A stretch of DNA of 52,133 bases, taken from positions 1 to 52,133 of IMG/VR virus record IMGVR_UViG_3300004770_000001; one strand, 5' to 3'. The notes beneath the pieces were generated by a model, which saw only the letters and a program-made list of their open reading frames with translations, made no database searches and was not told the DNA's origin. Numbering within the stretch: the stretch's first letter is position 1; each line of letters opens with the position of its first letter. This document shows, piece by piece, positions 3,205 through 40,663 of this stretch. This DNA is from a virus (Duplodnaviria; Caudoviricetes). The translations under genes were made by a program, and so were the position numbers.

Positions 3205-3384
3205 ATGAGTAAAATTGATTTTTTAATCGTAGTCGGCTATTGCATTTTTTGTTGTGTAATTATGACGTTGGAAGCATCACATGTTTTTGATTGGAAGGCT
3301 GCTTTGCTTTTTGTTGTTATTGGCCTTGCTCTATGTTTAGTATTATTTGACCATCAACCAAAAGACCCCAGCCATGAAAAGTAA
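3205..3384 (+). CDS. Small membrane protein (2 hydrophobic segments)
   Basis: Manual ORF MSKIDFLIVVGYCIFCCVIM...AALLFVVIGLALCLVLF. Confidence 0.5.
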   Translation: MSKIDFLIVVGYCIFCCVIMTLEASHVFDWKAALLFVVIGLALCLVLFDHQPKDPSHEK

Positions 3385-10940: not shown

Positions 10941-11748
10941 TAATGTTTTAGACTTCGACCGTGACAAGTTCGCTAAGGAGTTTAAAAGAACGCATCACAA
11001 GTATGAGCGTTCTGTTATTACATTATTTCAAAACGCATTAAAGCAGCAGGTAAAACCAGTTATTGATTTTGTAAAAGCAAACGGATCTGAAAACCTTAAA
11101 ACTCATTTATCTGCGCTAATTACTATTTCACCTATCCAGCACGCATACCGGGAATGTTATGTTAAAGTAGGTGTTCAACATGCGGAATTTATCTATAAAT
11201 GGATTCAAAAAATAGCAGGTAAAAAGGACTTAGGTTTTTTTAGTGCAGTTTGGCGAAAGTTAATGCAACACTTTTATTTGACTGATAGCGCACAACGGGT
11301 AAAGAATGTTAGCGACACTACTAAAGACAGGATTGCTCAGGCACTCGATGAAGCAGAGGCGCAAGGCTTAACGAAAAGCCAAACAGCGGATTATTTGGTT
11401 AACACTTTACAAAGCGACGATTTTACGAGGTCGAGGGCGCTAACAATCGCAAGAACCGAATCAACGGCAGCGGCCAGTCAAGGCGCAATGCTTGCGGCAG
11501 ATAGTTCAGATTATTTAGTCGGCAAAATATGGATTCCGATTGTTGATGCAAACACAAGGCCAGCTCATGCAGAAATGGACGGTGAACCTGCTATCTCTTT
11601 AACTGATCAGTTTGATGTCGGTGGTGAATTATTGAGTTATCCAGGGGATTTGTCTGGATCACCGGGTAACGTTATTAACTGCCGGTGTTGTGTTGCGATG
11701 GTTCCACTGGCTGATGATAACGGGCTGCCGATACTAAAAGCTGCCTAA
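10924..11748 (+). CDS. Minor head morphogenesis protein (Mu gpF / SPP1 gp7-like)
   Basis: RALTIARTE, KIW...DANTRPAH, YPGD...INCRC. Confidence 0.9.
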   Translation: MIHNYDNVLDFDRDKFAKEFKRTHHKYERSVITLFQNALKQQVKPVIDFVKANGSENLKTHLSALITISPIQHAYRECYVKVGVQHAEFIYKWIQKIAGKKDLGFFSAVWRKLMQHFYLTDSAQRVKNVSDTTKDRIAQALDEAEAQGLTKSQTADYLVNTLQSDDFTRSRALTIARTESTAAASQGAMLAADSSDYLVGKIWIPIVDANTRPAHAEMDGEPAISLTDQFDVGGELLSYPGDLSGSPGNVINCRCCVAMVPLADDNGLPILKAA

Positions 11749-12005
11749 ATATTCACCTGAAAATTTTCATCATAAGTATAAACAGCCATCGGGCATGTTA
11801 TTTTGTGGTTGTAGATTGCGATGCAAATCGGACTGCCTGCTAATATCGCTTCAATATCTTCCTTACTGGGTTGAAACTGCATTAAAATGTACGGGTTGCC
11901 TTCTTTATCAATTCCCCTCATTCCCGGAATAGGGATACAATCCTTTTCAAATCGGGCCGGAATTTCGCTTTGATAATTTGAACCTTTGAAGTCAACTGGC
12001 AACAT
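11745..12005 (-). CDS. Hypothetical protein (reverse-strand cassette)
   Basis: ORF MLPVDFKGSN...FQPSKEDIEAILAG. Confidence 0.65.
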   Translation of the reverse strand: MLPVDFKGSNYQSEIPARFEKDCIPIPGMRGIDKEGNPYILMQFQPSKEDIEAILAGSPICIAIYNHKITCPMAVYTYDENFQVNI

Positions 12006-12022
12006 TCGTGCAAGTTACGCAC

Positions 12023-12382
12023 TTACCATGAGATTTTTATAAAATGTTGGCGTTGATATACTTCTTCCGAAACAGAATAACCTAAGCTTTTAATGTATTC
12101 TAATCCGGCTTCATTAATTTCGGAATGAAATGTTCTTATAAACCGATGGCCATATTTAGCATTCTTTTTTATGTTATCCAATAAAGTATTTACTTGATTG
12201 GCATTTATTGTTAAAGCCAATCTTTCGGCTTCCAAAACCAAATAACGAGCCTTTTCAACATCAAAATCATTAAGCTTATCATCTTCTTTAATTCTGTTGA
12301 CATTTAACAAAATATCTTCAAATTTTACAAGGGTTTTTACCGATTTGTGTTTTTGTGGCCTAAATGCCTGAAATAATCCCAT
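12023..12382 (-). CDS. Hypothetical protein (reverse-strand cassette)
   Basis: ORF ending YIKSLGYSV...KISW. Confidence 0.65.
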   Translation of the reverse strand: MGLFQAFRPQKHKSVKTLVKFEDILLNVNRIKEDDKLNDFDVEKARYLVLEAERLALTINANQVNTLLDNIKKNAKYGHRFIRTFHSEINEAGLEYIKSLGYSVSEEVYQRQHFIKISW

Positions 12383-12412
12383 TGTTAATGATTTTTTGTT
12401 AAAAAATGTGAA

Positions 12413-12877
12413 TTAATGACCAAATGAAGCAAAAATACCGCGAATCATATCTTTTGATTCAGTCTTATTGATTTTACCCTCCGGTACACTAAACGGTAAT
12501 TCCTGATTAAATAATTCAAAAGTTAAATTCTGTAATTCGTGAATAAACTTTAAAGTTTTTATAGGGAACTGTTTATCAATCTCATTGTATTGCCCAATCC
12601 AAAATTCAAAACCATGAGTTAAAAAAAAGTTTAATTCTGAATGTTGAAAAATACCTTTTTCCGATTCAAAAAAATTTGAAAGTAGTAATTCGTGTGTTAA
12701 TTCAATGCCTTCTAAATTATCTTCCCTATCCCAATCGAGCGATACCTCAAAACTGGGTTCGACATTTATTCCGTAATCGCAAACACTATCGACAATAACC
12801 GGGTAATATCCATTTGTATAACAAATGTTTGTTTGATTTACGATATTCCCTACTCGAAGTGATTTTGTATCAATCAT
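12413..12877 (-). CDS. Conserved Bacteroidota-phage protein
   Basis: LRVGN.V...IELT.ELL...IHELQNL.F.L...EL pattern. Confidence 0.7.
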   Translation of the reverse strand: MIDTKSLRVGNIVNQTNICYTNGYYPVIVDSVCDYGINVEPSFEVSLDWDREDNLEGIELTHELLLSNFFESEKGIFQHSELNFFLTHGFEFWIGQYNEIDKQFPIKTLKFIHELQNLTFELFNQELPFSVPEGKINKTESKDMIRGIFASFGH

Positions 12878-13074
12878 GCTGTCTTTTTAATTATCTGCCA
12901 TTCAATTTCAGCAGGTTCATAACCAAACTTTGCAAAAAACCATATTAAGGTGCTTTGCTTTACGGTTCCGTTCTTCCAACGGCGCTTAATTGAAAACGCA
13001 GTACTGTGATTCATTACACCTGCATAAAACTTCGGCTCGGTGCAAATAATTCCCATTAGCTCGTCTGTAGTCAT
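12874..13074 (-). CDS. Small basic protein, possible HTH regulator
   Basis: 66 aa, STAFSIKRRWKNGTVKQSTLIWFFAKFGY; divergent from the protease gene. Confidence 0.55.
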   Translation of the reverse strand: MTTDELMGIICTEPKFYAGVMNHSTAFSIKRRWKNGTVKQSTLIWFFAKFGYEPAEIEWQIIKKTA

Positions 13075-13252: not shown

Positions 13253-14158
13253 ATGACACTTCCAAACGGTAATTTTCTTAAAAGCAAAACGGGCATTGTA
13301 GAAGTGCCTAAAAAGTTTCTTGAATTTAAGAGCATTAACAACGCTTCGGCTGAAATCAAGGACATTGATTTTAAAAACCGTATTGTTTCCTGTTATTGGA
13401 GTGCTTTTAATAATAAAGACTTCGACGACGACATAATGGTGCAGGGATGCTACAAAAAGTCAATAGCCGAAAACGGCCCGCAAGGGGCTAATAAGATATT
13501 TTACTTAAAGTCACACAACTGGGAAAACCCATTAGGCAAGCCTACTTTATTGCAGGAAGATTCAAAAGGTCTTTATGCTGAAATCCCTGTAACATCGGGA
13601 GCATCATTCGCTGAGGATACTTTAAAGCTGATGGCAGCCGGATTGATGATTCAGAACTCGGTAGGTTTTCAAACGGTGAAATACAATACAGTTATGCCGG
13701 ATGAAAACGATTGGCAGACCTGGTACCGGGAAATATTAGAGGTAAAACTTTATGAAGGATCAGCGGTGGTTTTGGGTGCTAATGAAGATACACCTTTTCA
13801 GGGCTTCAAAAGCATGACACCTGCGGAGCTTGTTGATCTTGAAAGCAAAATATTTAAAACACTTCGCTCTGGAAATTTACGGGACGAAACTTATGAACGG
13901 TTAGAATTTGCAATTAAACAGTTGCAAAGGGAAACATATTTATTGGGTCAATCTGAAAAGTCACTTACTGAAAACGAACAGCCGAAGATGATGACGGTGA
14001 GCTGCCCTGAATGTAATAAAGACATGGATGTTGACGACGATTCGTCGGAAATGGAATGTCCTTACTGCAAGTGCATGTTTACTAAGAGTTTCACTGTTAC
14101 GAAGCGTAAGCCGAAAGGAGCGATTGGAGCAATAGCGTCAATTAAAATAAATCTGTAA
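13253..14158 (+). CDS. HK97-type prohead protease with C-terminal Zn ribbon
   Basis: YWSAFNNKD..DD, SHN..PLGK, SVGF, EVKLYEGSAV.LGAN; CPEC...CPYC tail. Confidence 0.9.
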   Translation: MTLPNGNFLKSKTGIVEVPKKFLEFKSINNASAEIKDIDFKNRIVSCYWSAFNNKDFDDDIMVQGCYKKSIAENGPQGANKIFYLKSHNWENPLGKPTLLQEDSKGLYAEIPVTSGASFAEDTLKLMAAGLMIQNSVGFQTVKYNTVMPDENDWQTWYREILEVKLYEGSAVVLGANEDTPFQGFKSMTPAELVDLESKIFKTLRSGNLRDETYERLEFAIKQLQRETYLLGQSEKSLTENEQPKMMTVSCPECNKDMDVDDDSSEMECPYCKCMFTKSFTVTKRKPKGAIGAIASIKINL

Positions 14159-14177
14159 TCAAAAAAATTTAACAAAA

Positions 14178-15641
14178 ATGAAAACCATTAAAATATTAAA
14201 CTCCCTGTTTTTTGCGGTGGCGTTTTCTTTATTTGTGGGTGCCGCTACACAATCGCCGTTTGTTGCGATGGGTGTTTTTGGTTTCCTGATGATCGGTGGC
14301 CTTGTGCTTAACGCATCGAAATTTAATACCGATGGAATGCTCGGTGAATTTTTAACCATTTTGGATTCGGATTCCGAAGAAATCAAAGGTTATAAAAAGA
14401 ACATGAATAGCCTGGGCGATGCCGCTGTAAAAAAGGCTAAGGAAGAAGCCGCTAAAGAAGCAGAAGAAAAAGCTAAAAAGCTAATCGAAGATGCTGTTAA
14501 AAAGGTAAACGAAGATGCTGAAACTAAGATCAAAGTTTTGCGCGACGAAGTAGAGGCTAAAAACAAAGAAACCGAAGATGCTTTAACTCAGCTTAACCGT
14601 TTCAAAGAAATCGGCAAAGCTAATGAGAATAAAGGTGTTTCTTTTCAGGATTCATTGCTTGAGCAAATGGCAACTCCGGAGGCTTTGGATGGTTTCAAAC
14701 AACTTGCAAGCGGTAAAAAAGGCGCTGGCGTTAAATTGGAATTGAAAACCGTTAGCACTATGGGCTTATCGAGCATTTCAGGTCTTGACGTTGCTCGTGC
14801 CGAATTGCTTCCTGGTATCCTGCCAATTCCGAAGCGTAAAATTCACGTTCGTGACATTATCGCAACAGGCCGCATGACCGCATCAGATATCCACTTCTTG
14901 AAGATGACTTCAACTGATGGTACTGGTGCTATGTCGGTAGCAGAAAACGCTCAGATCAACCAGATCGATTTTAACTTTATCGAATCACTTGCTCCAAGCC
15001 AGTACATTTCGGCATTCTTGAAAATCAGCCGTAAATCACTTGATGACATCACTGCATTGCGTGCTTCGATTGCTGATCGTTTGTTACAGGAATATTTGCT
15101 TGCTGAAGATACTCAGCTTTTGACTGGTAACGGCTCAGGTTCAAACTTAACTGGTTTGATTAACTCGGCTAACTCATTCGCTTACGCTGGTTCTAAAACT
15201 AAGCCTGTCGAAATGTTGATTGATGCTGCAGCTTATGTTGAAACTAACAACCTGCAAGTTACAGGTATATTGTTGCACCCGATTGACTGGTCTTCAATCC
15301 TGTTAACTCAATCTTCTGGTTCAACTGCCGGTATCTACTCGCTGCCAGGTTTAGGTGTTGTTAGTTTGCAAAACGGTATCCTGCATATCAATGATATTCC
15401 GGTTTACAAATCTACTGCAATATCTCAGGGTGAAGCTCTGTTGGGTGACTGGCAGAATGGTGCGCAGTTGTTCTTACGTGAAGATCCTATTGTTGAGTTC
15501 TTCGAGCAAGACGGTACAAACGCACAATACAATCAGATTACTGTTCGTGTTCAGGGTCGTGTAGCATTGCCAGTTTACTACGGTGGTGCAGGTGGCGCAT
15601 TCTGTCGCGTTAACATCTCTGGTTCAGGCTATCAATCTTAA
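14178..15641 (+). CDS. HK97-fold major capsid protein with N-terminal hydrophobic hairpin and coiled-coil delta domain
   Basis: Follows protease; ISRKSLDD, EDTQLLTGNG, LLHPIDW, LLGDW, NQITVR motifs; K/E-rich coiled coil at about aa 65-150. Confidence 0.92.
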   Translation: MKTIKILNSLFFAVAFSLFVGAATQSPFVAMGVFGFLMIGGLVLNASKFNTDGMLGEFLTILDSDSEEIKGYKKNMNSLGDAAVKKAKEEAAKEAEEKAKKLIEDAVKKVNEDAETKIKVLRDEVEAKNKETEDALTQLNRFKEIGKANENKGVSFQDSLLEQMATPEALDGFKQLASGKKGAGVKLELKTVSTMGLSSISGLDVARAELLPGILPIPKRKIHVRDIIATGRMTASDIHFLKMTSTDGTGAMSVAENAQINQIDFNFIESLAPSQYISAFLKISRKSLDDITALRASIADRLLQEYLLAEDTQLLTGNGSGSNLTGLINSANSFAYAGSKTKPVEMLIDAAAYVETNNLQVTGILLHPIDWSSILLTQSSGSTAGIYSLPGLGVVSLQNGILHINDIPVYKSTAISQGEALLGDWQNGAQLFLREDPIVEFFEQDGTNAQYNQITVRVQGRVALPVYYGGAGGAFCRVNISGSGYQS

Positions 15642-15752: not shown

Positions 15753-15926
15753 ATGGCAGATGACCAAAAAGAATACACACCGTTAAAACTCGATAAGGGA
15801 CTAAAGGAAGTAGTTAAGAAAAAAGCCGAAGAAGAAAACAGATCGGTAAATAACTACATCGAAACATCCTTAATCGAAAAGACGGGGTATAAAAAAGGCA
15901 TACATACTAAAAAACGTGAATATTAA
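15753..15926 (+). CDS. Ribbon-helix-helix (Arc-like) protein, 57 aa
   Basis: Manual translation ...TPLKLDKGLKEVVKKKAEEENRSVNNYIETSL; TAATG coupling to the next gene. Confidence 0.75.
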   Translation: MADDQKEYTPLKLDKGLKEVVKKKAEEENRSVNNYIETSLIEKTGYKKGIHTKKREY

Positions 15927-16534
15927 TGGGTTTGGAAAGCATTGAATTTAACGGCAAAGTTTATCCGTCTTTTCAGGCTACGGGTAACGCTGCGAGGTGG
16001 TGCAGACCATTCGCTGACGAAATACTCAAAGGTTTAACTCACGGCTTAGATATTGGCTATTCCAAAGAAGAATGGAAGTATCCGGGATCTATAGGTATCG
16101 AGCCGTCAATAAACCCTCAGTTTCATGCGATGAATTTGCCAGTTTACGGAGGCGAGGGATTTGATTACATCCATAGTTCCCATAGCCTTGAACATGTTAA
16201 AGAAAATTGGATGAATGTTCTGGATTATTGGATGAGCGTTTTACGGGTTGGCGGTATTCTGTTTTTGTATCTGCCGCATGTATCACAAGAATACTGGCAG
16301 ACATGGAGCAACCGTAAGCACGTTCACCAATTCACTGGCACCGAAATAGCGGACTATCTCAAATCAAAAGGCCACAAGGTTTTTTTAAGTAGTGTTGATC
16401 TAAATAACAGCTTTATTGTTGTTGCTGAAAAGTCTATTTACAGCGATAGCAAAAGCAACGATCCCAAAACAAAACTCGGTGATTTACCACCAAGTGAACG
16501 ATTCACCTTTGATATAACCGGGAACGCACAATGA
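15926..16534 (+). CDS. Class I SAM-dependent methyltransferase
   Basis: GLDIG, FDYIHSSHSLEHV, VLRVGGILFLYLP. Confidence 0.85.
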   Translation: MGLESIEFNGKVYPSFQATGNAARWCRPFADEILKGLTHGLDIGYSKEEWKYPGSIGIEPSINPQFHAMNLPVYGGEGFDYIHSSHSLEHVKENWMNVLDYWMSVLRVGGILFLYLPHVSQEYWQTWSNRKHVHQFTGTEIADYLKSKGHKVFLSSVDLNNSFIVVAEKSIYSDSKSNDPKTKLGDLPPSERFTFDITGNAQ

Positions 16535-16690: not shown

Positions 16691-16990
16691 ATGATAAAAT
16701 GGTTTAAAAAAGTATTAGCGATGCTCATTCGCTACCATTTAGCCGGGAAGGGTTATCAGTTCATTGAACCTTCCTTAGTAAAGGTTACACCAAGCTTAGT
16801 TTACAAAGGAAAAATTGCGCCTGCAGGAAAGGTTTTCTATATAGCATCACTTAAATATCGTGGCGTTTATTTTCATAAAGATGTAGCTATTGAAAGAAAA
16901 GACATCAGTCCGGCTGACGAAAAGAAACTGATTAGGTTATGCCAGGTGAAATTTGTTAGAGGTATTGAAAAACGAATCAATAAAGCATGA
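16691..16990 (+). CDS. Hypothetical basic protein
   Basis: ORF coupled to the glycosyltransferase gene. Confidence 0.6.
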   Translation: MIKWFKKVLAMLIRYHLAGKGYQFIEPSLVKVTPSLVYKGKIAPAGKVFYIASLKYRGVYFHKDVAIERKDISPADEKKLIRLCQVKFVRGIEKRINKA

Positions 16991-18891
16991 AAGTCGGAGT
17001 TATAATTTGCTGCTATAACAGGCCCGAATATTTGAAAGAATGTTTATGGAGCCTTGAACGAGTTATGCTTCCTGAAAGTGCAGAAATTCTGATTATCGAC
17101 GATGCCAGCAATAACAATCAAACGCTAAACCTTATAAATAACTTCACTCATAAAAACCCGGTTAGAAAAGTCCTGTTAAAAGAGAATGTAGGCATCAGAG
17201 GTGCGCTAATTTACGGCTTTGACCTGTTCTTTGGGTTAGGATTAGATTTAGTTATAAACTTCGATAGCGACGCTATAATTAAGCCTGACGGGGTATTGAA
17301 ATTAATTCAGGCTTATAAGGAAATTCCCGGTAAGCTTTTAACAGGGTTTCATTCAACAACGCGAAATGCTAATGGAACCGAAAGGCATCATATTATCAGC
17401 GAAGAAAAAAGCTTATATCTTAAACAGTCTGTTGGCGGCATAAACTTTTGTATCGACAAACAGGCATATGATAATTTTGTCAAACCTGCTTTAAACATTG
17501 TCGGCAACTGGGACCATAACGCTTGTATAAATGCAGGTGGCGCTTACTGCCTAAAAGAAAGCATCTGCCAGCACATCGGATTTGATAGTAGTATGAACCA
17601 TACCGAACAGCCGGACGTTGCAGACGACTTTTTTTATTACGATTTACCCGATGTTACACTGCTTTGTGTCGACAGCAATCCTGAACGGGTAAAACCTGCT
17701 TTAAAAAAATGCACTGAGTATATCAGATTTGGAGAAGTAAAGGTATTGCACCCGAATATCAATTCAAAAGAGCAATATAGCGAATGGTGTATTGATGAAA
17801 TGCACAAAAATATTAACACTTCGCATGTTTTGGTATTTCAACATGATGGATTTGTAAATAACTGGAAAGCGTGGGATGATAGCTGGACGCAATATGACTA
17901 CATCGGCGCTCCCTGGCATTATACAGATGGTTACGATGTGGGGAATGGAGGCTTTTCGCTTCGGTCAAAAAGACTGATGGAATTGGTTAGCACAATCGTA
18001 AAACAAAAGCATCCGGAAGATCACCACATTTGCCGAACCTACCGAAAAGAACTCGAAGCACACGGAATGAAGTTCGCACCCTTGCACGTAGCGGAAAAGT
18101 TTTCATTTGAGGGCTATTTGCAGCCGAATAAGGTACTTTCTGATCAGTTTGGTGTACACGGACCTAACCCGCGAAAATCGCCTGGAGTCCCGGTTAAAAC
18201 TCAAAAATATATTTTCAATCAATTTTTGTCGCTGGGGGACATTCTGTTTTTAATTCCGATGGCAAGGGCATTGATGCATGAAGGTAATTCTGTTCTATGG
18301 CCTATTGAAGATCAGTACCTAAATATCAAAAAACACTTTCCTGATATAAACTTTGTAAGTAAAAAAGAAGTTGATATTAACTACGAAATCCGGGCGACAA
18401 ATAACACACCTCATGGCGTTGTATTGCCTTATCGCTGGGCTTCGGAAATACTAAAAAAGGATCTTCGCTTTTGTATGCGGTCAAAATATGACCTTTACGG
18501 GCATAATTATTTAATGTGGCGCAATCTTTACTGGAAACGGGACTACGCCAGCGAAAACAGGCTAATTAACCTTTTAAACCTACCGAAAGACTTCATTTTG
18601 GTTAATCGTTTCTTCGGGCATGAATTTAAGCATAAAATAACACCTGAAATAAACTCGAACTTACCACAAATCGAAATGAGGCCGATTGAGGGCTTTACTT
18701 TGATTGATTGGCTGGCAGTAGTTGAGAAAGCTTCTGAAATTCACATGGCAAATTCAAGCTTAAACTATTTAATTGAGTTGATGCAGTTAAATATCCAGGT
18801 TCACCTTTATAAGCGTGGCATCTGGGGAGAACGGGAATTTGAGTACAGCGACTATCTATTCACTAATAAATGTTTCATTTTTCACAGATAA
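16987..18891 (+). CDS. Multidomain glycosyltransferase (GT2 + DUF5672-like + GT-B-like C-terminus)
   Basis: VIICCYNRP, IIDDAS, FDSD; FQHDG...YDYIGAPW...VGNGGFSLRS...ED; LGDILF...NSS. Confidence 0.85.
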   Translation: MKVGVIICCYNRPEYLKECLWSLERVMLPESAEILIIDDASNNNQTLNLINNFTHKNPVRKVLLKENVGIRGALIYGFDLFFGLGLDLVINFDSDAIIKPDGVLKLIQAYKEIPGKLLTGFHSTTRNANGTERHHIISEEKSLYLKQSVGGINFCIDKQAYDNFVKPALNIVGNWDHNACINAGGAYCLKESICQHIGFDSSMNHTEQPDVADDFFYYDLPDVTLLCVDSNPERVKPALKKCTEYIRFGEVKVLHPNINSKEQYSEWCIDEMHKNINTSHVLVFQHDGFVNNWKAWDDSWTQYDYIGAPWHYTDGYDVGNGGFSLRSKRLMELVSTIVKQKHPEDHHICRTYRKELEAHGMKFAPLHVAEKFSFEGYLQPNKVLSDQFGVHGPNPRKSPGVPVKTQKYIFNQFLSLGDILFLIPMARALMHEGNSVLWPIEDQYLNIKKHFPDINFVSKKEVDINYEIRATNNTPHGVVLPYRWASEILKKDLRFCMRSKYDLYGHNYLMWRNLYWKRDYASENRLINLLNLPKDFILVNRFFGHEFKHKITPEINSNLPQIEMRPIEGFTLIDWLAVVEKASEIHMANSSLNYLIELMQLNIQVHLYKRGIWGEREFEYSDYLFTNKCFIFHR

Positions 18892-20396: not shown

Positions 20397-20828
20397 ATGA
20401 ATCCTGGATTATTTAATAAGCGAATACGGTTTTTTGTTGAAACTGCAACCCAAAATGAATACGGTGGATCTGTTACAACTTTAACACCTGTATCTAATGT
20501 TTCACCGGATGCTAAAGACGGCGACCATACAGCTACATGGGGAGCTTTAGAACCTATTCGCCAATACCATCAATTTGCAATCGAGGCCGGTGCCAGCGTT
20601 ATGAATGGCGACCGTTTTTTGAAGATACGGAAACGGGCAAGCTTTTACCCAACTAAAAATATGGTGTTTCAGGACATCAGCGATCCTAATAATACAAATC
20701 CTGACACTTACACGATAGTTTCAGTATTACCTTACTGGCCAGGTGCTAAAGCAAGTTTCCAAAACGGACAGGAAACAGCTTACCATGATCAGTATTTTGT
20801 TTGGATGCTCGGAGTAAAAAGAAGTTAA
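20397..20828 (+). CDS. Head closure / head-tail adaptor
   Basis: MNPG.FNKRI.F...NEYGG...W; synteny. Confidence 0.75.
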   Translation: MNPGLFNKRIRFFVETATQNEYGGSVTTLTPVSNVSPDAKDGDHTATWGALEPIRQYHQFAIEAGASVMNGDRFLKIRKRASFYPTKNMVFQDISDPNNTNPDTYTIVSVLPYWPGAKASFQNGQETAYHDQYFVWMLGVKRS

Positions 20829-28448: not shown

Positions 28449-31400
28449 ATGAAAAGGCTTTTATTAATAGTTACCATTATATCAGCATTTGTTACAGCGT
28501 CTTTTGCTCAGACAAAGCCAGTAGCAACCCGTACACCCGATGGCCCTCAGTTTATCGGGGACGCGAATTTAAAAGCAACAAAATATTTAATAGTACCCAT
28601 TTCAAGTGTTACGGGAATAACAGGCGGTACGGTTGATAGTGCAGGATACATCCGATACAATCCATCTACTAAAAACTTTGAGGGTTATTATGGCCCGGTT
28701 CATGGCTGGGGCGCTATTGGTGCTGCATCAGGAAATATTGTAGCAAAAGCCGATAGTAATACTTTTCCTGGTTACGTTACCCGTACAGCTTTAAAAGATT
28801 CATTAGCGAATAACACCCTAATATTTTCAAGACGGTTTAAAAACGTTTCAGGAACGGTTGATTTAGCTATCGGTGACAGTTCGGCCACATCCACAAATAA
28901 CAAACTTGTATTCAAAAATAATAACGGTGATTTAGTCACTCCTAACATCGTGTATGCTGCCGGAAGTACAAATACTATTACTTATACCGGAATGAAAATA
29001 GTTGCTTCAGGTGGGCTGCAAATACCTACCGGAGCAAGTTCAGGGTATGTTTTAACAAGCGATGGATCAGGGAATGCTTCATGGTCGGCAGGTGGAACAA
29101 CCAATATCTATAACCATAACGGCACATTAACAGGTAACAGATATTTTAACGGTGGGTTTCATCAATTGCACCTTGATTCATTGTCCGGGTATTATCAAAG
29201 TGTTGCAGGTACCGACGCTTTGGGAGAAGAAGATGCAACTACTTCATTCTATGGCAATACTAATACTATAAGTTTTTCTTATTGGGGTGGTGATTATTAC
29301 GCATTTTCATCTTCGGATGACGGCACAGGAAATTCAACAATGAACCTTTCGCATCAGCAAGGTTCAAGCTATGAATCCTTTTCGTTTGACAATAATAACA
29401 CAGGTATAAAAGTAATCGATCAATTGGGCGGTTATGGATTAGTTGCTTCAACAGGTGTTGACAGTACCAAAATGGGAACAGGTTCGGCTACTTACGCTAC
29501 AGGAAAATGGGTAATAAACCGAATAAAAAATTATTTTACGGCAGTTGGTGGGGCTACAAGTCAATCAGTAACTTTTAATAACAGCGGTTCAGGTGCTTCG
29601 TCAGGTGCTTTTTTTAACGGTACGGCAGCCAAAACAATTAGCTATAACACAATCGGTGCGCAAGCGGCTTTGAGTGGAACAGGTTTCGTAAAGATTTCAG
29701 GTTCTACGATTAGCTATGATAATTCGACCTATCTAACAACGGCGGCTGCAAGTTCAACCTATCAGCTTGCTTCAAACATCGAAACAACATTAACAAATTC
29801 CACTTATTTATATCCATCAGGAAGCGCAGTCACGGCGGCAATAGCGGCTATTTCAGTACCAACAGGAGCAAACCCGACAGGATCAGCCGGTTTGACTGCC
29901 GTTAACGGTTCTGCAACCACTTTTATGCGCAGTGATGCTGCACCTGCCATTAACCAGGGGATTGCGCCAACATGGACGTCGCAACATAATTATCAGCTTA
30001 ACTCACTCGGTACAACAATCGCGGCATCAAACGCTTCAATTTTTGTAGCCAATACAACAGCAGCCACTTCGGGAACTCAGCAATATTCGCCACTTATTGG
30101 GTGGCAAGCTCAATACTATAATACGACGGCATCTGCATCAAGATCGGTAGCGGCTTATTGGGGGCTTCAATCGCAATCGGGCACTGGATATGCTTACTTA
30201 GCAATGTACGCTTCTATAGATGGTGGTACACCTGCTTATAATGGCGTTGAAATAAGTTTGACAGGCTCTATGATTGCTGGGGCTTATACTTCAAGCAGTA
30301 CGTTTACAACAGCAAATAATGGTATAGGTGTTACTTCTACGGACGGCTATATTATGGCTAACGCCACAGCAGCGACAAACTCACTGGCTCAATGGTCGCG
30401 CAGATCACGGCAAAGCTCATTTTATTGGACTGGATCTACATCAAATCAGGCAGAAGCAACAGAGGAATTGCAAACCACTACCTCAAATACTGCTCAATAT
30501 GTTATTTCAGGGCGTACAGGTGGTTCAGGCTCATTCAATCCATACTTCGGCATAAGTGTAATCAACGGCAACTGGAGCTTAAACGGAACGGCTGGCACGA
30601 CCGGGCAAGTTCCGTCAAGTACAGGTTCGGGAATGCAATGGATAACTCCGATATCTTTAACAAGCCTATCCGCAACAACTCCTTTATCATACAATAACAC
30701 TACAGGTGCTTTTACCATTCAGCAAGCAAGCGGAAGTCAACCGGGTTATTTAGCATCAGCAGACTGGACGACTTTTAATGGCAAACAAGCCGCACTTTCA
30801 GGAACTGGATTTGTTAAAATATCGGGTACGACAATAAGTTATGACAACTCAACTTATTTAACTACCACAACTGCGGCTTCGACATATAGCCCGATTGCAG
30901 GTAGTTCGTCAATCGTTACGGTGGGTTCGCTTACATCAGGATCTATCCCTTATTCACTTTTAAGCGGAACGGTTCCGACATGGAATCAGAATACCACAGG
31001 AACGGCAGCCAATATAACAGCCACATCAAATAGCACCTTAACGACATTATCGGCTTTATCGCTGCCTTATTCACAAATTACAGGCACACCGTCATTATCG
31101 GGTTATATTCCCTATACTGGCGCGACTGGTAACGTGACGCTGGGTAGCTATTCAATCACTGCTTCACAATTCTTAGCTGGCACACTCGGCTATACAGATA
31201 CGGGCATTTTAGGGGCTTTGCAAAGCTCTGTCAATGGGTACAATCAATTCATTATCCAAAACACAAACACAGGATCGTCAGCATCGGCAAATTTAGTATT
31301 GAATAACAGCGCAAGTAGCGCAACGAATTACTACGGTGAAACGGGTATTAATGGCGTTAACTTTTCAAACGGTTCAGGGTCTTTAAACGGGCCGGGTAAC

Positions 31401-31823
31401 GTTTACTTTGATGCAGTTGGTGAAGATATAGTTGTAGGAACTTTCTCAAACAATGCAATTCACCTGGTTGCAAATAATAACGCCACAGACGCAATAACCA
31501 TATCAGGTTCAAATGCTATTTCATTCCCTCAATTAAGCACCAACGGACTATTAAAAACAAGCGGGGGCACTGGGGCTGTAAGTGTTGCGGTGGCTGGAAC
31601 TGATTATGTTTTAGCATCAAACTTTGTTACATCAGAAGTGCCATCCGGAACTATCAACGGTAGCAATACCAGCTTTACGCTTGCCAACACTCCGGTAACG
31701 GGAACTATCAGGCTATTTAGAAACGGAGTAAGAACTACAGCATTTACTGCGTCAGGTAGCACAATCACCATGAGCGCAGCACCATTAACAGGGGATACAC
31801 TTTTAGTTGATTATCAAAAATAA
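28449..31823 (+). CDS. Ser/Thr/Gly-rich tail-fibre-like protein with Sec signal peptide
   Basis: MKRLLLIVTIISAFVTASFA/Q; IRYNP...FEGY, ADWTTFNGKQAAL and internal duplicated repeats typical of phage fibres. Confidence 0.7.
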   Translation: MKRLLLIVTIISAFVTASFAQTKPVATRTPDGPQFIGDANLKATKYLIVPISSVTGITGGTVDSAGYIRYNPSTKNFEGYYGPVHGWGAIGAASGNIVAKADSNTFPGYVTRTALKDSLANNTLIFSRRFKNVSGTVDLAIGDSSATSTNNKLVFKNNNGDLVTPNIVYAAGSTNTITYTGMKIVASGGLQIPTGASSGYVLTSDGSGNASWSAGGTTNIYNHNGTLTGNRYFNGGFHQLHLDSLSGYYQSVAGTDALGEEDATTSFYGNTNTISFSYWGGDYYAFSSSDDGTGNSTMNLSHQQGSSYESFSFDNNNTGIKVIDQLGGYGLVASTGVDSTKMGTGSATYATGKWVINRIKNYFTAVGGATSQSVTFNNSGSGASSGAFFNGTAAKTISYNTIGAQAALSGTGFVKISGSTISYDNSTYLTTAAASSTYQLASNIETTLTNSTYLYPSGSAVTAAIAAISVPTGANPTGSAGLTAVNGSATTFMRSDAAPAINQGIAPTWTSQHNYQLNSLGTTIAASNASIFVANTTAATSGTQQYSPLIGWQAQYYNTTASASRSVAAYWGLQSQSGTGYAYLAMYASIDGGTPAYNGVEISLTGSMIAGAYTSSSTFTTANNGIGVTSTDGYIMANATAATNSLAQWSRRSRQSSFYWTGSTSNQAEATEELQTTTSNTAQYVISGRTGGSGSFNPYFGISVINGNWSLNGTAGTTGQVPSSTGSGMQWITPISLTSLSATTPLSYNNTTGAFTIQQASGSQPGYLASADWTTFNGKQAALSGTGFVKISGTTISYDNSTYLTTTTAASTYSPIAGSSSIVTVGSLTSGSIPYSLLSGTVPTWNQNTTGTAANITATSNSTLTTLSALSLPYSQITGTPSLSGYIPYTGATGNVTLGSYSITASQFLAGTLGYTDTGILGALQSSVNGYNQFIIQNTNTGSSASANLVLNNSASSATNYYGETGINGVNFSNGSGSLNGPGNVYFDAVGEDIVVGTFSNNAIHLVANNNATDAITISGSNAISFPQLSTNGLLKTSGGTGAVSVAVAGTDYVLASNFVTSEVPSGTINGSNTSFTLANTPVTGTIRLFRNGVRTTAFTASGSTITMSAAPLTGDTLLVDYQK

Positions 31824-31824
31824 T

Positions 31825-34800
31825 ATGAAACGGATACTATTTTTTATTGCTTTTTTATTTGCATCAACTTTTGCTTTTGGGCAGGCAGGCAACATTGTAG
31901 CTGGGCAGGTAAATACTTCTGCCTACACGCCGTTGGATACGGGATATATTTCTTTAAACAAGCTCAAAGTAAATAGCACAATAGCTTATTTCGGTAACTC
32001 CATATCTGCAAGAGGCTTGGTGGGTGGTGAGCCTACATCAAAGCCTACCTATTGGAGTGCTTTGGGGTATGCGACATGGACACAACAATTAACCAATTAT
32101 AAGCTATTTGCGCCTCGTTTTTCAGACTCTTTGGCAATATCCGGGCAGACTACTACGCAAATGCTTGCAAGGCTTGGCGCGGCTTTAAATTACAAATTGG
32201 ACGTTGTTGTTATTGAGGCCGGAACAAACGATATAGCAACAGGTGCATCATCACAGACAATAATCGACAACCTGCAAAATATAGTTAATGGATTTGTGGC
32301 AAACGGAACACGGGTTTATATCCTAACCGTAATGAAAAGATGGTCGCCAGCGACTTTTACAAGCGGACAGGAAACAATAAGACAGGCGGTAAATACAGCG
32401 ATACTTGGCATGGCTACCACAATGGTAACGCCGATAAATCTTGAAAATGCGATGAATAGTTCAACCCTTTTCGGGTCGGATGGTATTCATCCAACATCAA
32501 CAGGTGCTTATACTATTGCTACTTTATTAGCTCCCAAAATTCAAACTTATTTACCGACAAATATCAGCATAACTGATAATATCGGCAGCGATAATAACTT
32601 GGTAACAAATGGTAACTTACTTGCAGGTACTTCGGGAACGACCACAAGTGCAAGCGGTACGGTGGTATCAAACTTTAATCTGAATGGTACTAATGCAGGG
32701 GGTGGTACAATTACAGGATCAGTCACAAATGCCAATAATGCCAATCAACAGGTTATTACTTTATCCGGAACGTACACTTATTCAGCATCAAATGGGTGCA
32801 GTCTTTATAGTGGATTGGTTGCAGCTTCAAATCTTTATGTTAACGATGAATTGGAGGGGTATGTTGATTTTGAAATCACCACTCCTTTAACCAACGTACA
32901 GGCTATTTACTTACAAAATGGTATTTATGATGGTAGTTCAACTTTATTGGCATCGGGCTATACCAACTATTATGCAGGTGATAATCCGATATATCCTTTG
33001 GGTAATGGCAGGTATCAAATGAGAACGCCACCTATCACAATTACAACAGGCACACCGACACAGATTGACGCAAAAATTACCATTTTATTTAATGAAGCAT
33101 CAGGGTCATTGGGCGGTGTTGTAAGGATTTGGAAAGTAGGTTTAAGAAAGATTGTCAATAAATCATACGCTACACAATTTCCGGGACTCAATACCAACGG
33201 TATTTTACACCTATATGGTGGAAACGGAACGGCTTATAGCGCGCCACTTAGTTCAGGTGACTTACCTGCGGGTGTTGCTTTCCTTGCATCGGCACAAACC
33301 TTTACAGGGTTAAACCAGTTCAACGTTACTAACACGGCTACATCTGGCAGCCAATATGGCTTTCAAATTAACCCTACATATAACCAGGCATCGGGAACGG
33401 GAACAAATACCGACCTTTTAATTAACCGAACGGAAACGGCTATAATGTCGGGGACTCAGTTATTAGAGGATTTACAGGTAGGCGGTACTTCTAAATTTAG
33501 TGTTTCAAGAACAGGGGTTGTAACGGCAGCAAATACAATAACTACGCCAACGATTCAAACACCGGCGGTAACAACCGCATTAGGCTCTAACTCATCGTTA
33601 ATTTCGTTGGGCGCAAATGGTACATCGGTGGTAAGGAATATTAGCGATGCAAATTCGGCGTTTTTTGTAAATAATAAACTGGGAACTGGTGATATTCAAG
33701 ATTGGCAGTTTGCTACATCAAACGTAGCTACAATGGGTTATAATGGTAAGTTTACTTTGAATGGTAGTATAAGCGCATCATCGAGCCTTGCACAGGGTAT
33801 ATTTGCTAACCATACCCTAACAGCAGTAGCAAATAATGACGTTTTGGTTGAGGGTGATTTTAACCCAACCATTGCGGGTGTAGGTATCATATCAACTTTG
33901 GGGTCGGTGACAGGCGGTTCATCTTATACCAACGGAACTTACACTAACGTTCCCTTAACAGGTGGTAACGGTTCAGGCGCACAGGCAACGGTAGTTGTTT
34001 CAGGCGGTGCTGTTTCGACGGTGACAATAACCACAGCCGGAACAAGGTATGTTGTGGGTGATATTCTTTCCGCAGCAGCAGCAAATATTGGTGGTACAGG
34101 TTCGGGATTTAGCGTCCCGGTAGCAACATTAACCCAAACGGTAACAGGTGCGGTTTTAAGGGCTACTGTAAGCAATATTGGTCAGGGTAGTGGTTCGTCA
34201 GGTTCATGGTCAGATGGATTGCTGATGTTAAACTCTACAGCAGCAACAGCTACACTAACTCAAAACGCGCCGGGAATACATTTTTCATCTTACGGATGGA
34301 ATACAGGTTCATCAGCATCACAAGTTTTTGATAGCTATATAGTAAGTTCAGCGCAAACAGGTGCAACATCACCGGGGGGTAATATTGGTTTTATATTCTA
34401 CCAAAACGGCACTAAATCTGGAACGTCATTTGCTTTTGCCCCGTCACTTGCTTCGTTCACATCAGCACAGCTACAATTAACCCACTCCGCACAAGGCGCA
34501 ACGGTATTTACAAGTTTGGCCCTATTAAACACAACAGCATCAACAGTAGGTACACCTAACCAATGGACTAACCAATATTATCAGGAGGGAACTGTCTGGA
34601 ATACGGGCGGAACACCCGCGAATAACCCATTTGCTTTTGGTTTAATTGGTGAGGGTACATCAAGTGCTAACCCTTACGCATCATGGTATTTTCAGACTTA
34701 TTTAGGCACAAGCAATACCCCGACATTTGTGAATATGGCATCATTTACCACGCAAGGGCAGTTTAACTTAGCATTAGCTAATAGCAACGTTCAGGCAGGA

Positions 34801-35544
34801 TCACAGGCGGGTACAATCTTTAACATCGCTGCATCAACGGTAACAGATAACTCCACAGCATCGGGTACAGTAACAAATTTCGCGGTTATCGGAACAGGTC
34901 TAACCACATTAGCAGCAACCAACGCAAGTATTACTTATACCAATGGGTACGGTGCTTTCTTTACACAGCCAACAAACGGCACTAACGTAACCATGACGAA
35001 TAAATATGCTTTAGGTCTTGCTTACGATGCTACCCACTTAGCTACGTTCGCTGTAAGTTCGGCAGGTTTACTTACAATTAACGCCACAAGTACAATAACA
35101 ATAACCCCCGCAACAACATTTAGTACTACAGTTTCAGGGCCGACAGCATCGACGTTAACAAATACAACCCAATTAGCCACTACAGCATACGTTATAAACA
35201 ACGTTCTTACAAAGAGAACCGCACAGGCTATAAACGCCACAGCGACCGCTACAGCAGCGCAAATGGCAGCAGGGTACATTACGTCAACATCAGCAGCAGC
35301 GACTACCATAACTTTTCAAACGGCAACGGCTTATGCAACAGGCTTGGGTGCAGCAGCAGGGTCGACGGCAGATTTATACATAGACAATACAGCAGGTGCA
35401 AATACGGTGACAATAGTGTTAGGCTCAGGTATGACAGGCGTAAATAGCCCATCATTAACGGTTTCTACGGGTGCATCGGGAATTGCCCTATATCACTTTA
35501 CATTTTCGTCAACATCAGCTTGTACAGTAGTAAGATTACAATAA
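31825..35544 (+). CDS. Fibre/spike-like protein with signal peptide and SGNH (GDSL) hydrolase domain
   Basis: MKRILFFIAFLFASTFAFG/Q; FGNSI, SGQTT, GTND, DGIHP; NTTQLATTAYV fibre motif. Confidence 0.75.
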   Translation: MKRILFFIAFLFASTFAFGQAGNIVAGQVNTSAYTPLDTGYISLNKLKVNSTIAYFGNSISARGLVGGEPTSKPTYWSALGYATWTQQLTNYKLFAPRFSDSLAISGQTTTQMLARLGAALNYKLDVVVIEAGTNDIATGASSQTIIDNLQNIVNGFVANGTRVYILTVMKRWSPATFTSGQETIRQAVNTAILGMATTMVTPINLENAMNSSTLFGSDGIHPTSTGAYTIATLLAPKIQTYLPTNISITDNIGSDNNLVTNGNLLAGTSGTTTSASGTVVSNFNLNGTNAGGGTITGSVTNANNANQQVITLSGTYTYSASNGCSLYSGLVAASNLYVNDELEGYVDFEITTPLTNVQAIYLQNGIYDGSSTLLASGYTNYYAGDNPIYPLGNGRYQMRTPPITITTGTPTQIDAKITILFNEASGSLGGVVRIWKVGLRKIVNKSYATQFPGLNTNGILHLYGGNGTAYSAPLSSGDLPAGVAFLASAQTFTGLNQFNVTNTATSGSQYGFQINPTYNQASGTGTNTDLLINRTETAIMSGTQLLEDLQVGGTSKFSVSRTGVVTAANTITTPTIQTPAVTTALGSNSSLISLGANGTSVVRNISDANSAFFVNNKLGTGDIQDWQFATSNVATMGYNGKFTLNGSISASSSLAQGIFANHTLTAVANNDVLVEGDFNPTIAGVGIISTLGSVTGGSSYTNGTYTNVPLTGGNGSGAQATVVVSGGAVSTVTITTAGTRYVVGDILSAAAANIGGTGSGFSVPVATLTQTVTGAVLRATVSNIGQGSGSSGSWSDGLLMLNSTAATATLTQNAPGIHFSSYGWNTGSSASQVFDSYIVSSAQTGATSPGGNIGFIFYQNGTKSGTSFAFAPSLASFTSAQLQLTHSAQGATVFTSLALLNTTASTVGTPNQWTNQYYQEGTVWNTGGTPANNPFAFGLIGEGTSSANPYASWYFQTYLGTSNTPTFVNMASFTTQGQFNLALANSNVQAGSQAGTIFNIAASTVTDNSTASGTVTNFAVIGTGLTTLAATNASITYTNGYGAFFTQPTNGTNVTMTNKYALGLAYDATHLATFAVSSAGLLTINATSTITITPATTFSTTVSGPTASTLTNTTQLATTAYVINNVLTKRTAQAINATATATAAQMAAGYITSTSAAATTITFQTATAYATGLGAAAGSTADLYIDNTAGANTVTIVLGSGMTGVNSPSLTVSTGASGIALYHFTFSSTSACTVVRLQ

Positions 35545-37037
35545 TGAAACGCATACTAATCATATTATTCCTACTATACAGCTTTGCGGCATCAGCTCAA
35601 TATTGCGGGCCATATACAGCGCATTCCAACATCAGCGAATCGGGACATAGTTACGAAACGATACGGGGCGATTCAATAAATTGCGGAAGTTCTGCCGGGA
35701 TTTACCTTTATAACAGTCACGATATTCATATCACTAAGTGTAAATTCGTGAATGGCACAAGTAGTGCAGGTGTTGGCATTTACCTTTTAGGGTGTTATAA
35801 TATAACTATTGATAGCTGTTTTTTTAGCGGGACTGCATCCGGTTGCTATGCGCAACTTTGTACAGGTGGTATAGTATTTCAATACAATCATGACCTTAAC
35901 GAAGTTGGCCCATTACCTAGAGGGCAAATGATTCAGCTTAATACTTGCTCAGGATCAGGCAATATTATTCAGTACAACATTAGCCAGTCATTTCCGGGTG
36001 TTGGCAACTACGAAGATCACATTAACCTATATAAATCAAACGGTACATCAGGTAGTTATATAACTGTAAAATATAACACCATTTACGGCGGTGGACCGTC
36101 GACAACGGGGTCAGGAATTACGGTCGCGGATGGAGGCGGCAGTTACCAGGATATTGAATATAATACCGTAATAAATCCCGGTTACATCGGTATGCAAGCC
36201 GCTGGAGGTACTTATATCAACATCAGCAACAACACAATCTATTCAAAACAAACTACGGTATCTCATTTGGGTCTAGGATACGGAAATTATAGCGGTTCAC
36301 CATCGAATAACGTTGTGATGGGATACAACCGAATTAAATTTATAAATAGTTCAGGATCTGAAGCTGATACTGCACACCATTATTCAGCCGGGACTTATCA
36401 GGTATCAACGCCAATTAACTGGACTACAAACACCGTAAATGCTTCAATAGATAGCACCATTGTAAGTTTCCCCTTATGGGCCGCTTGTATTCTAAGCCCA
36501 GTAATAAGTTATACTGCCCCATCGGCTTTAACTTATGGATCAGCAATGGCAACTCTAACACCGACAAATACGGGCGGCATCGCAGCAAGTTTTACTATTA
36601 CACCGTCTTTGCCATCAGGTTTAAGTTTTAATACTTCTACGGGCGTTTTTAGCGGCACTCCATCGGCAGTTATTTCGGCTACATCTTATACCGTAACGGC
36701 AACAAATACGGCAGGAAGCGGAACGGCATCTGTTTCACTAACAGTAAATAAAGCGCCATTATCAATTTATGCAAATAGCCTGTCAAAAGTACAAGGAACG
36801 GCTAACCCGACTTTAACAGCAAGCTATTCAGGTTTTGTTTTGGGTGATACGCCGTCATCATTAACAACCCTGCCAACATTAAGCACAGCAGCGACCACAA
36901 GCTCACCCGTCGGCACTTATTCGATTACAGCCAGCGGAGCAGCTTCGTCAAATTATACCATTAGTTATTATTCAGGTACTCTGACTATATACAGCGCACT
37001 TTTAAAGCATCACAAGTTTAAAATCTTAACACATTAA
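35544..37037 (+). CDS. Signal-peptide protein with right-handed beta-helix, Ig-like (He_PIG) and MBG-like domains
   Basis: MKRILIILFLLYSFAASA/Q; GIYL/NI.I..N repeats; LPSGLSFNTSTGVFSGTP; KAPL...ANPTLT.SYSGFV.GD...VGTY.IT.SG...NY. Confidence 0.75.
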   Translation: MKRILIILFLLYSFAASAQYCGPYTAHSNISESGHSYETIRGDSINCGSSAGIYLYNSHDIHITKCKFVNGTSSAGVGIYLLGCYNITIDSCFFSGTASGCYAQLCTGGIVFQYNHDLNEVGPLPRGQMIQLNTCSGSGNIIQYNISQSFPGVGNYEDHINLYKSNGTSGSYITVKYNTIYGGGPSTTGSGITVADGGGSYQDIEYNTVINPGYIGMQAAGGTYINISNNTIYSKQTTVSHLGLGYGNYSGSPSNNVVMGYNRIKFINSSGSEADTAHHYSAGTYQVSTPINWTTNTVNASIDSTIVSFPLWAACILSPVISYTAPSALTYGSAMATLTPTNTGGIAASFTITPSLPSGLSFNTSTGVFSGTPSAVISATSYTVTATNTAGSGTASVSLTVNKAPLSIYANSLSKVQGTANPTLTASYSGFVLGDTPSSLTTLPTLSTAATTSSPVGTYSITASGAASSNYTISYYSGTLTIYSALLKHHKFKILTH

Positions 37038-39515: not shown

Positions 39516-39602
39516 GAACGGGTGCCGCAGATGGTTAGCGGACAGAGTAAACGACTGGCTTTAGTTGCTCTGTAGTCGTGGGTTCGACTCCCACCCCGTT
39601 AG
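39516..39602 (+). ncRNA. tRNA-like RNA with an elongated, bulged anticodon arm
   Basis: Acceptor AACGGG/CCCGTT, D arm CCGC-AGATGGTTA-GCGG, T arm GTGGG-TTCGACT-CCCAC; the anticodon stem CAGAG/CTCTG encloses 20 nt. Confidence 0.75.
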
Positions 39603-39619
39603 CTTATTTTAAACATTTT

Positions 39620-39988
39620 ATGGCAAATTCAAATCCTACCTTGTGGCAGCGTATTTCAAGCGAAACGCCTCCGTTTTGGTTAAAAGTTCAAAAGATATGC
39701 CTTGCTTTGGCGGCAGTTGTTTCTTACCTGGCATTGCAGAAATTGATACCCGCGGAAATAACCGACACGGTTTATAAAGTGTGTTTAGGTTGTGCTGGCC
39801 TTTCTCAGTTTGCTGTTACCGATATTGGTATGGTAAACGGCGCTGTCAACAATCCGTTATCTGCATTGTCTGATTTATCAACCATTAAATCACAAGTTGG
39901 TGCTATTCATCAGCAAGTAGTAGCTCCGGCAAAGCCTGAAACTATTGATAGTGTAATTGAAAAGGTTGCGGACATAAACGCTCAATAA
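39620..39988 (+). CDS. Putative holin
   Basis: WQRI.SETP.FW.KVQK then two hydrophobic helices; TAATG-coupled to the lysin. Confidence 0.7.
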   Translation: MANSNPTLWQRISSETPPFWLKVQKICLALAAVVSYLALQKLIPAEITDTVYKVCLGCAGLSQFAVTDIGMVNGAVNNPLSALSDLSTIKSQVGAIHQQVVAPAKPETIDSVIEKVADINAQ

Positions 39989-40623: not shown

Positions 40624-40663
40624 AGAGTAACGAATTATCAATTAACCATAAACAAAAATCAAA

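Follow-up and report, generated by a model that had tools for sequence, protein, structure and literature searches.

A predicted membrane hairpin appears to be an exchangeable N-terminal cassette of HK97-family phage capsid precursors

We have investigated the N-terminal region of the major capsid protein encoded by a tailed virus, IMG/VR record IMGVR_UViG_3300004770_000001, a complete genome (52,133 bp, bounded by direct terminal repeats), which was analysed over its whole length and is referred to here as the window. The capsid open reading frame (ORF; 14178..15641, + strand) codes for 487 amino acids (aa) and its N-terminus reads MKTIKILNSLFFAVAFSLFVGAATQSPFVAMGVFGFLMIGGLVLNA, a hydrophobic leader which, based on hydropathy, charge distribution and an AlphaFold2 (AF2) model, is very probably composed of two transmembrane (TM) helices. 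Comparison with related capsids indicates that the leader, together with the ~28 residues which follow it, is an optional cassette moved by recombination among near-identical capsid genes, a behaviour which is a new result. The best explanation of the whole is that the cassette-borne hairpin is translated and inserts as a membrane anchor which is accessory to assembly, a reading to which we assign a probability of roughly 0.5.

A homologue search of 5.8 billion proteins recovered 66 relatives, from which a tree set of 55 rows was assembled, consisting of the window and 54 relatives of at least 395 aa ranked among the first 56; P0047 and P0055, both fragments, were left out, as were P0057-P0066, which are more distant. 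The N-terminus is hydrophobic in 25 of the 55 rows and not in the other 30. When leader state is placed on a tree of the core of the protein (window residue 135 to the end), 17 changes are observed, at least 11 of them forced by well-supported branches, compared with a mean of 18.4 for shuffled labels. Leader presence and absence are thus fully interspersed on the core tree, in a manner no different from shuffled labels. The closest relative, P0001, which is known from its protein sequence only, lacks the leader while its core is 80% identical to that of the window, and the cores of P0014, which carries the leader, and P0018, which does not, are almost identical. Placed on the 28 residues following the leader, a tree of few columns, the same character changes only twice, a value as low as this being obtained in 0 of 500 shuffles. 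Residues 57-84 (14346..14429, +), the part of the scaffolding (delta) domain which is inherited with the leader, are 74% identical in pairs of the same leader state (24 pairs) and 35% identical in pairs of different state (37 pairs), all with a core identity of at least 85%. The sequence here is of the type ETK..K..N in the window versus EVKxVKEKLNxVY in leaderless forms.

A corresponding pattern is observed in the DNA of two related loci, L001, which carries the leader, and L002, which does not, in genomes that are collinear mosaics. The two are 78% identical through the protease gene upstream and 88% identical onward from capsid codon 100 of L001, equivalent to codon 45 of L002, while between these flanks no homology is detectable across ~290 nucleotides (nt) in L001 and 119 nt in L002. 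Repeated simple deletion of the leader is disfavoured, as the next 28 residues co-segregate with it and DNA homology between L001 and L002 is lost across the whole segment. Combined, the scattering of leader state on the core tree, its association with the following 28 residues and the homology gap between L001 and L002 show that the leader is an exchangeable cassette. The delta domain has two N-terminal alleles of ancient origin, with and without the hairpin, which recombination shuffles among equivalent shells. The middle of the delta domain (residues 85-134, 14430-14579) is also mosaic, with a mean pairwise identity of 0.34-0.39, the core reaching 0.71. An indel of three residues in this region (as in EEKAKWEEK) is common to both leader states. 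This pattern suggests that recombination has acted elsewhere within the scaffold domain too, and cassette exchange itself makes the delta domain a recombination hot spot.

The leaderless forms are not an artefact of gene calling. The ME(E/D)LFxIE start of the short forms aligns with GEFLxIE of the long forms, a stop codon is located 1-5 codons upstream of the ATG in L005, L006, L007/L023 and L009/L010, and in L002 the ATG lies 3 nt past the protease stop. The leader is truly absent from the short forms whose DNA was read. In the 25 rows in which the leader is present, the reading frame remains uninterrupted and hydrophobicity persists even though identity is only ~45%, suggesting that it is more than chance. 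The sequence-only reading had named homologues without the hydrophobic segment as grounds for its refutation, and this applies in part: the leader is conserved in these 25 of 55 rows, and many homologues have no such segment, including the closest, P0001, and P0018.

At the DNA level the leader was detected in three of 82 related loci (L001, L003 and L004; 80 of the loci are viral, two are genomic and four are 5'-incomplete), and the only match in a metagenome scan for further leader-bearing DNA was the L004 contig. A tblastn search of a phage collection with the N-terminal 90 residues of the window protein detected no cultured phage at E ≤0.01, and among the 30 matches listed, of 632 records, when cultured phages were searched with the whole protein, none starts before query residue 60. 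A profile of the leader and junction constructed from four sequences (A2) was searched against 1.84 billion representatives and gave four matches, three being capsid proteins of the same family (P0008, P0002 and the 189-aa fragment P0067) and the fourth, P0068, a protein of 3189 aa which is matched weakly (E 2.2e-4). This search provided no free-standing or differently attached relative beyond P0068 and, by these comparisons, the leader appears confined to one capsid family apart from that weak match. Two proteins of a more distant core clade, P0034 and P0042, carry a leader which is shorter and shares the ETKAAK signature.

The product of ORF 14178-15641 is, as judged from its sequence matches, an HK97-family major capsid protein. 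Residues 206-468 match PF05065 (84.1 bits versus a cut-off of 24.2, E 1.5e-23) and the protein matches the phrog_10 major head protein (E 5e-33); phmmer against PDB detected 9osb_A (2e-30), 3qpr_A (6.7e-24), 1ohg_A (8.9e-23) and also 9lbm, and the order of strands and helices past residue 184 in the AF2 model is as expected for the HK97 fold. The gene upstream encodes a prohead serine protease of the Peptidase_S78 family (13253..14158, +; PF04586 E 6.2e-18, phrog_80 E 1.5e-28). The two genes are separated by a 19-nt spacer and the ORF list contains no scaffold gene between them, suggesting that the capsid protein carries a fused delta domain as its long N-terminal region. This arrangement corresponds to that of HK97 gp5, in which an HK97-fold shell is likewise associated with an S78-type protease directly upstream, no separate scaffold gene and a long helical N-terminal domain ending where the mature chain begins. 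Position 14 of 1ohg_A, the mature HK97 chain, pairs with query residue 207, which would place the mature N-terminus at approximately residues 191-194 and the maturation cut within ELK|TVSTMG. The delta domain would then be ~190 residues in length compared with 103 in HK97 and, unlike that of HK97, it is preceded by the two-helix hydrophobic hairpin. The HK97 delta domain is described in PMC9671378 as having coiled coils and no defined TM helices. The sequence-only reading had proposed an HK97-type capsid with a fused delta domain directly after the protease, which the PF05065, 1ohg_A and S78 matches bear out, and cleavage near ELK-T, with which the HK97 alignment is consistent.

The capsid ATG at 14178 is located 19 nt past the protease stop (TAA 14156-14158) behind tcaaaaaaatttaacaaaa, an A-rich initiation region without a Shine-Dalgarno motif (14159..14177, +), and here the ORF start, spacing and A-rich leader are exactly as had been described from the sequence alone. 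The regions upstream of gene starts in the window are A-rich and contain no Shine-Dalgarno motif, as is typical of Bacteroidota. Scored with a position weight matrix derived from the regions upstream of the window's own longer ORFs, ATG 14178 reaches 5.19, which places it in the top 1.5% of 888 ATGs and highest among the five in-frame ATGs scored, Met76, Met54, Met31 and Met38 having values of 1.16, -0.42, -5.7 and -8.7, respectively; the mean is 2.69 for gene starts in the window and -2.85 for all 888 ATGs. The distance from the protease stop to the capsid ATG is 7 nt in L001 and 3 nt in L002, suggesting that the leader and leaderless architectures share one genomic start position. Other leader-bearing proteins have I, L, V, A, S or G where the window protein has Met54, which argues that there is no conserved internal start. 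Thus start context and homologues support translation from ATG 14178 and not from a downstream Met, the event which the sequence-only reading had named as its own refutation.

Both segments of the leader are strongly hydrophobic. Mean Kyte-Doolittle (KD) values are 1.92 for residues 6-24 and 1.88 for residues 27-46, with helical moments of 0.05 and 0.14, respectively, these very low moments suggesting that the segments are uniformly hydrophobic and not amphipathic. The highest 19-residue hydropathy window is 2.06 in the leader and 1.12 in the rest of the capsid protein. The AF2 model, obtained with a 54-sequence alignment (mean predicted local distance difference test score, pLDDT, 74.9), contains helices at residues 2-24 and 27-46, with a pLDDT of ~85 in this block, followed by a low-confidence linker at 47-66, a single helix at 67-151 and the HK97 fold. 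The leader can accordingly be divided into residues 1-24 (14178..14249, +), a basic MKTIK N-terminus with predicted hydrophobic helix 1; residues 25-26 (14250..14255, +), a tight Q-S turn followed by P27, where indels occur in homologues; and residues 27-46 (14256..14315, +), predicted hydrophobic helix 2, in which G40 is invariant across the four leader modules of profile A2. Residues 47-66 (14316..14375, +) constitute a putative flexible linker (pLDDT <50 at 49-57) which includes the junction motif G-x-L-G-E-F-L-x-I. The long delta-domain helix predicted at residues 67-151 (14376..14630, +) is K/E/A-rich, with 18 K, 16 E and 12 A in 85 residues, and the remainder of the delta domain would occupy residues 152-190 (14631..14747, +), up to the proposed ELK|TVSTMG site. 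Residues 191-487 and the stop codon (14748..15641, +) correspond to the HK97-fold shell domain, the presumptive mature capsid protein. As a lead only, the ESM Atlas structural neighbours of residues 1-66 are TM hairpins from assorted membrane proteins.

The charge pattern of the leader is also retained between relatives. Exactly two K/R are present within the first six residues in all 24 full-length leaders, the interior (mean KD 1.5-2.1) is free of D/E in 22 of the 24 and free of K/R in 23, the turn is neutral, and K/R occur within the last ten leader residues, after helix 2, in 19. The consensus is MK.IK.LT..LF.VLM......A...(turn)...L..GS....G.LGEFLTI.A.DS, with indels concentrated at the turn, and the MK.IK..T..LF motif and charge pattern are kept among leaders at ~35-45% identity. 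An N-in/C-in membrane hairpin would be expected to show such a pattern, and the helical hairpin of M13 procoat, also short with basic flanks, provides a comparison. A scan for signal-peptidase (-3,-1) sites detected a compatible site in 22 of 22 leaders, and also in 95% of composition-preserving shuffles; it does not, therefore, discriminate cleavage after helix 1.

Combined, the sequence comparisons show that the hairpin is real, translated and under selection, and its most likely consequence would be membrane tethering of the precursor. The precursor would open with a ~46-residue helical hairpin, which a flexible linker joins to the long helical delta domain, with the HK97 shell domain last. 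The hydrophobicity and positive-inside charge pattern suggest that the hairpin should insert in the cytoplasmic membrane; it would be captured co-translationally and inserted N-in/C-in with the scaffold and shell domains remaining cytoplasmic, such that new capsid protein would be tethered to, and concentrated on, the inner membrane face. A closed shell, ~50 nm across, holds its delta domains inside and, with a tether consisting of a 20-residue linker and a ~13-nm helix, not all shell subunits can stay anchored in a flat membrane. The hairpin would have to be removed while the shell is still open or as it closes; failing that, it would be lost with the delta domain near K190|T191 through the S78 protease. 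It is not expected in the virion. In T4 the prohead also begins attached to the inner membrane, via the portal gp20 with gp40 and YidC, according to PMC9958956. T4, however, is attached at a single portal vertex and gp23 is soluble, while in the window every shell subunit would carry an anchor, which a closed shell cannot accommodate. The ability of leaderless alleles to build the same shell suggests that the hairpin is an accessory modulator and not the core of morphogenesis. Its role could be to determine where and when assembly-competent subunits become available, or could reside in a membrane effect of the released peptide.

Several points weigh against a membrane anchor. Near-identical cores occur without the leader (P0014/P0018, window/P0001), indicating that any role in assembly would be dispensable. 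A T=7 shell, T being assumed from genome size, contains ~415 copies, which multiplied by burst size corresponds to tens of thousands of membrane hairpins, a load which could be harmful or might saturate the insertion machinery, many precursors then remaining cytosolic. No protease site was identified between hairpin and scaffold. Co-variation was investigated using 863 crude ORFs from 10 genomes, three with the leader and seven without, and no membrane-associated partner gene follows the leader in this set. No protein family is found in all leader genomes yet absent from the leaderless ones, and none is found in at least four leaderless genomes yet absent from all leader genomes, such absences being soft, as completeness is only 59-84% for five of these genomes (four leaderless, one leader-bearing).

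These results also bear on the broader proposal of the sequence-only reading, namely that proheads of this phage nucleate on or enclose membrane and that its exported fibres indicate envelope-associated morphogenesis. As a property of the capsid the former is not sustained, with near-identical cores leaderless and no gene tracking the leader in the 10 genomes, and the latter loses its force as signal-peptide-bearing fibre-like genes are present in leader-plus and leader-minus genomes alike. Obligatory envelope-associated morphogenesis is thus not supported. The window itself encodes three fibre-like ORFs (28449-31823, 31807-35544 and 35520-37037; 1124, 1245 and 505 aa, respectively) which open in a signal-peptide-like manner, MKR followed by a hydrophobic stretch and A-Q, the third having Beta_helix, He_PIG and MBG_2 domains, and a giant ORF with a hydrophobic N-terminus is also present in the related genomes G001, with the leader, and G002, without. 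Such products, if exported, might in some way join a cytoplasmically assembled virion, or might be secreted enzymes instead.

HK97-type capsid assembly is held to be soluble and cytoplasmic, the delta domain functioning as a soluble scaffold. A membrane-type hairpin on this scaffold would mean either that subunits are staged on the membrane or that the discarded scaffold has a second, membrane-associated job. More specifically, and only tentatively, we propose that this is a tailed-phage family which makes its shell protein as an inner-membrane precursor, the cassette hairpin timing subunit release or coupling maturation to a membrane event. If this is true, the cytoplasmic membrane would be a regulated staging platform for HK97-type assembly, and lysis timing, phage exclusion and defence evasion would be candidates for the membrane event coupled to maturation. 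As the same shell occurs in both cassette states, at 88% DNA identity, the contribution of the hairpin could be measured by a swap of natural alleles, with no artificial mutants. Annotation of this capsid family should also allow for two start architectures, both of them legitimate.

The functional product could alternatively be the released hairpin, an explanation that we consider unlikely even though several observations accommodate it. Cleavage of the delta domain would free a two-TM, N-in/C-in peptide in an amount tied to capsid output, which could act as a holin- or antiholin-like lysis timer, a modulator of the proton-motive force, or a superinfection-exclusion or anti-defence factor. 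A proposal of this type has been made for gp9 of EpicDab/EricDab (Gordonia phage, MK660712; PLoS One 2022, PMC9671378). In that report, gp9 is a fusion of capsid protein and protease for which a coiled coil and two TM helices are predicted at the N-terminus, with N-in/C-in topology, and from which the protease is proposed to release a holin-like peptide likened to the D29 gp11 holin; its authors report no other holin-like gene and regard the gp9 start codon as uncertain. In the gp9 record MK660712, hydrophobic segments are located at residues 9-39 and 42-58 by the rule used for the window. Both capsid precursors, then, open with two hydrophobic segments and continue with a charged helical stretch, the evidence being bioinformatic. 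In searches of openly accessible full text, PMC9671378 was the sole report found of TM helices on a tailed-phage capsid precursor. The two TM segments, basic flanks and charged helical C-terminal part of the window peptide constitute the topology which PMC9671378 likens to D29 gp11. The patchy, recombining distribution of the leader on equivalent capsids is also what is expected of an accessory or conflict module, and leaderless capsids function without it.

The resemblance to EpicDab is limited, as the phage collection searched by tblastn with window residues 1-90 includes MK660712 and gave no match at E ≤0.01, suggesting that the two leaders are independent inventions whose resemblance is architectural only. 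Unlike the window, EpicDab has the protease fused between leader and capsid, a host of a different phylum and a genome of 16.7 kb, and cassette-like presence and absence among near-identical capsids has been shown only for the window family. In addition, while no other holin-like gene is reported for EpicDab, the window encodes an endolysin with an adjacent TM ORF: a GH25 endolysin (muramidase) is located at 39988-40623 (Pfam E 2e-40) and is abutted upstream by a 136-aa ORF with one TM segment (39578-39988), a candidate holin. With this lysis cassette in the window, and with clusters of small TM proteins in both G001 and G002, replacement of a missing holin by the leader is not supported. Two-TM holins (class II type) resemble the leader in being short N-in/C-in hairpins with basic flanks, the comparison with D29 gp11 being drawn in PMC9671378. 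They differ from it in being small, free-standing and encoded beside the endolysin, while the hairpin begins a capsid protein of 487 aa whose gene lies 25 kb away. Also inconsistent with a released effector are the lack of any gene gained or lost together with the leader in the 10 genomes and the lack of leader relatives outside the capsid family, bar the weak P0068, or in the cultured phages searched, including EpicDab.

It is less probable again that the hairpins remain cytosolic and cluster, at the tips of the scaffold domains, as a micelle-like core at the prohead centre, aiding nucleation or size control before being degraded at maturation. Delta domains face inward in HK97 proheads, 415 × 47 residues would occupy ~2,600 nm3, equivalent to a sphere of ~8.5 nm radius, and in a T=7 prohead the 85-residue helix (~13 nm) with its linker could bridge the gap that is left. 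The membrane-targeting machinery might also be outrun by very high late expression. A cytosolic core does not, however, need a positive-inside pattern, fixed helix lengths or a variable turn, strongly hydrophobic N-terminal segments are normally captured co-translationally, and leaderless alleles give the same shell.

Very improbable is an annotation artefact, in which the true start would be a downstream Met and the hydrophobic stretch would be untranslated or a separate small gene. Its attraction is that Met54 is in frame two residues ahead of where leaderless homologues begin, and that the database entries P0009, P0019 and P0020 begin inside the leader. Beyond the weak context and lack of conservation of Met54 reported above (-0.42 compared with 5.19 at Met1), no stop is found between leader and capsid in four DNA sequences and 22 further leader proteins, the MK.IK..T..LF motif and charge pattern are conserved at about 35-45% identity, and leaderless genes share the start position relative to the protease stop. 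Closure of the shell around host membrane to give an internal lipid core or vesicle is barely credible, for it draws only on the location of the hairpin on an inward-facing domain and on membrane-attached initiation of the T4 prohead (PMC9958956), while leaderless shells can be near-identical, genes for lipid handling or membrane remodelling do not co-vary with the leader in the 10 genomes, and a vesicle would be expected to block DNA packaging and to have no exit route.

The phage host is likely a member of the Bacteroidota. Leaderless relatives were found in a Mucilaginibacter and a Chitinophagaceae metagenome-assembled genome, and several window ORFs have signal-peptide-like N-termini in which a hydrophobic stretch is followed by A-Q, an arrangement typical of Bacteroidota. 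Combined, these two observations suggest the host assignment.

Other genes of the window were also compared. The C-terminal part of the protease bears a CxxC...CxxC insertion (residues ~240-275), a zinc-ribbon-like CPEC...CPYC sequence with a weak, below cut-off match to HypA (E 4e-4). This insertion was considered as a correlate of the leader and rejected, being present in the window and in leaderless G002 and absent in leader-bearing G001; it is another mosaic element. Between a Mu F-like head gene and the protease, ORFs of 86, 119, 154 and 66 aa on the minus strand (11745-13074) resemble a moron block that has been inserted; G001 has no homologue of any of the four, and the 154-aa ORF partly matches G002 (39% identity, 27% coverage). 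Downstream of the capsid gene, the head module contains a Methyltransf_23 methyltransferase (15926-16534, E 1e-7) and a 634-aa GT2 glycosyltransferase with DUF5672 (16987-18891, E 5e-19), both kept in nine of the 10 related genomes compared irrespective of the leader, and glycosylation or other modification of the virion is therefore a possibility.

Further ORFs with hydrophobic segments follow the GH25 gene in the lysis region (39578-41185), and 42032-42601 encodes a DNA/RNA non-specific endonuclease (E 1e-12), secreted or lipoprotein-like, whose N-terminus contains a lipobox-like LLASC. In leaderless G002, the head-tail connector module contains a 52-aa two-TM ORF (20539-20697, locus L086), which has no counterpart in G001 and none by BLASTP in the other two genomes compared, and does not recur in four or more of the leaderless genomes. 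The window also contains, in early or accessory regions, ORFs of 59 aa (3205-3384) and 55 aa (46703-46870) with two hydrophobic segments each.

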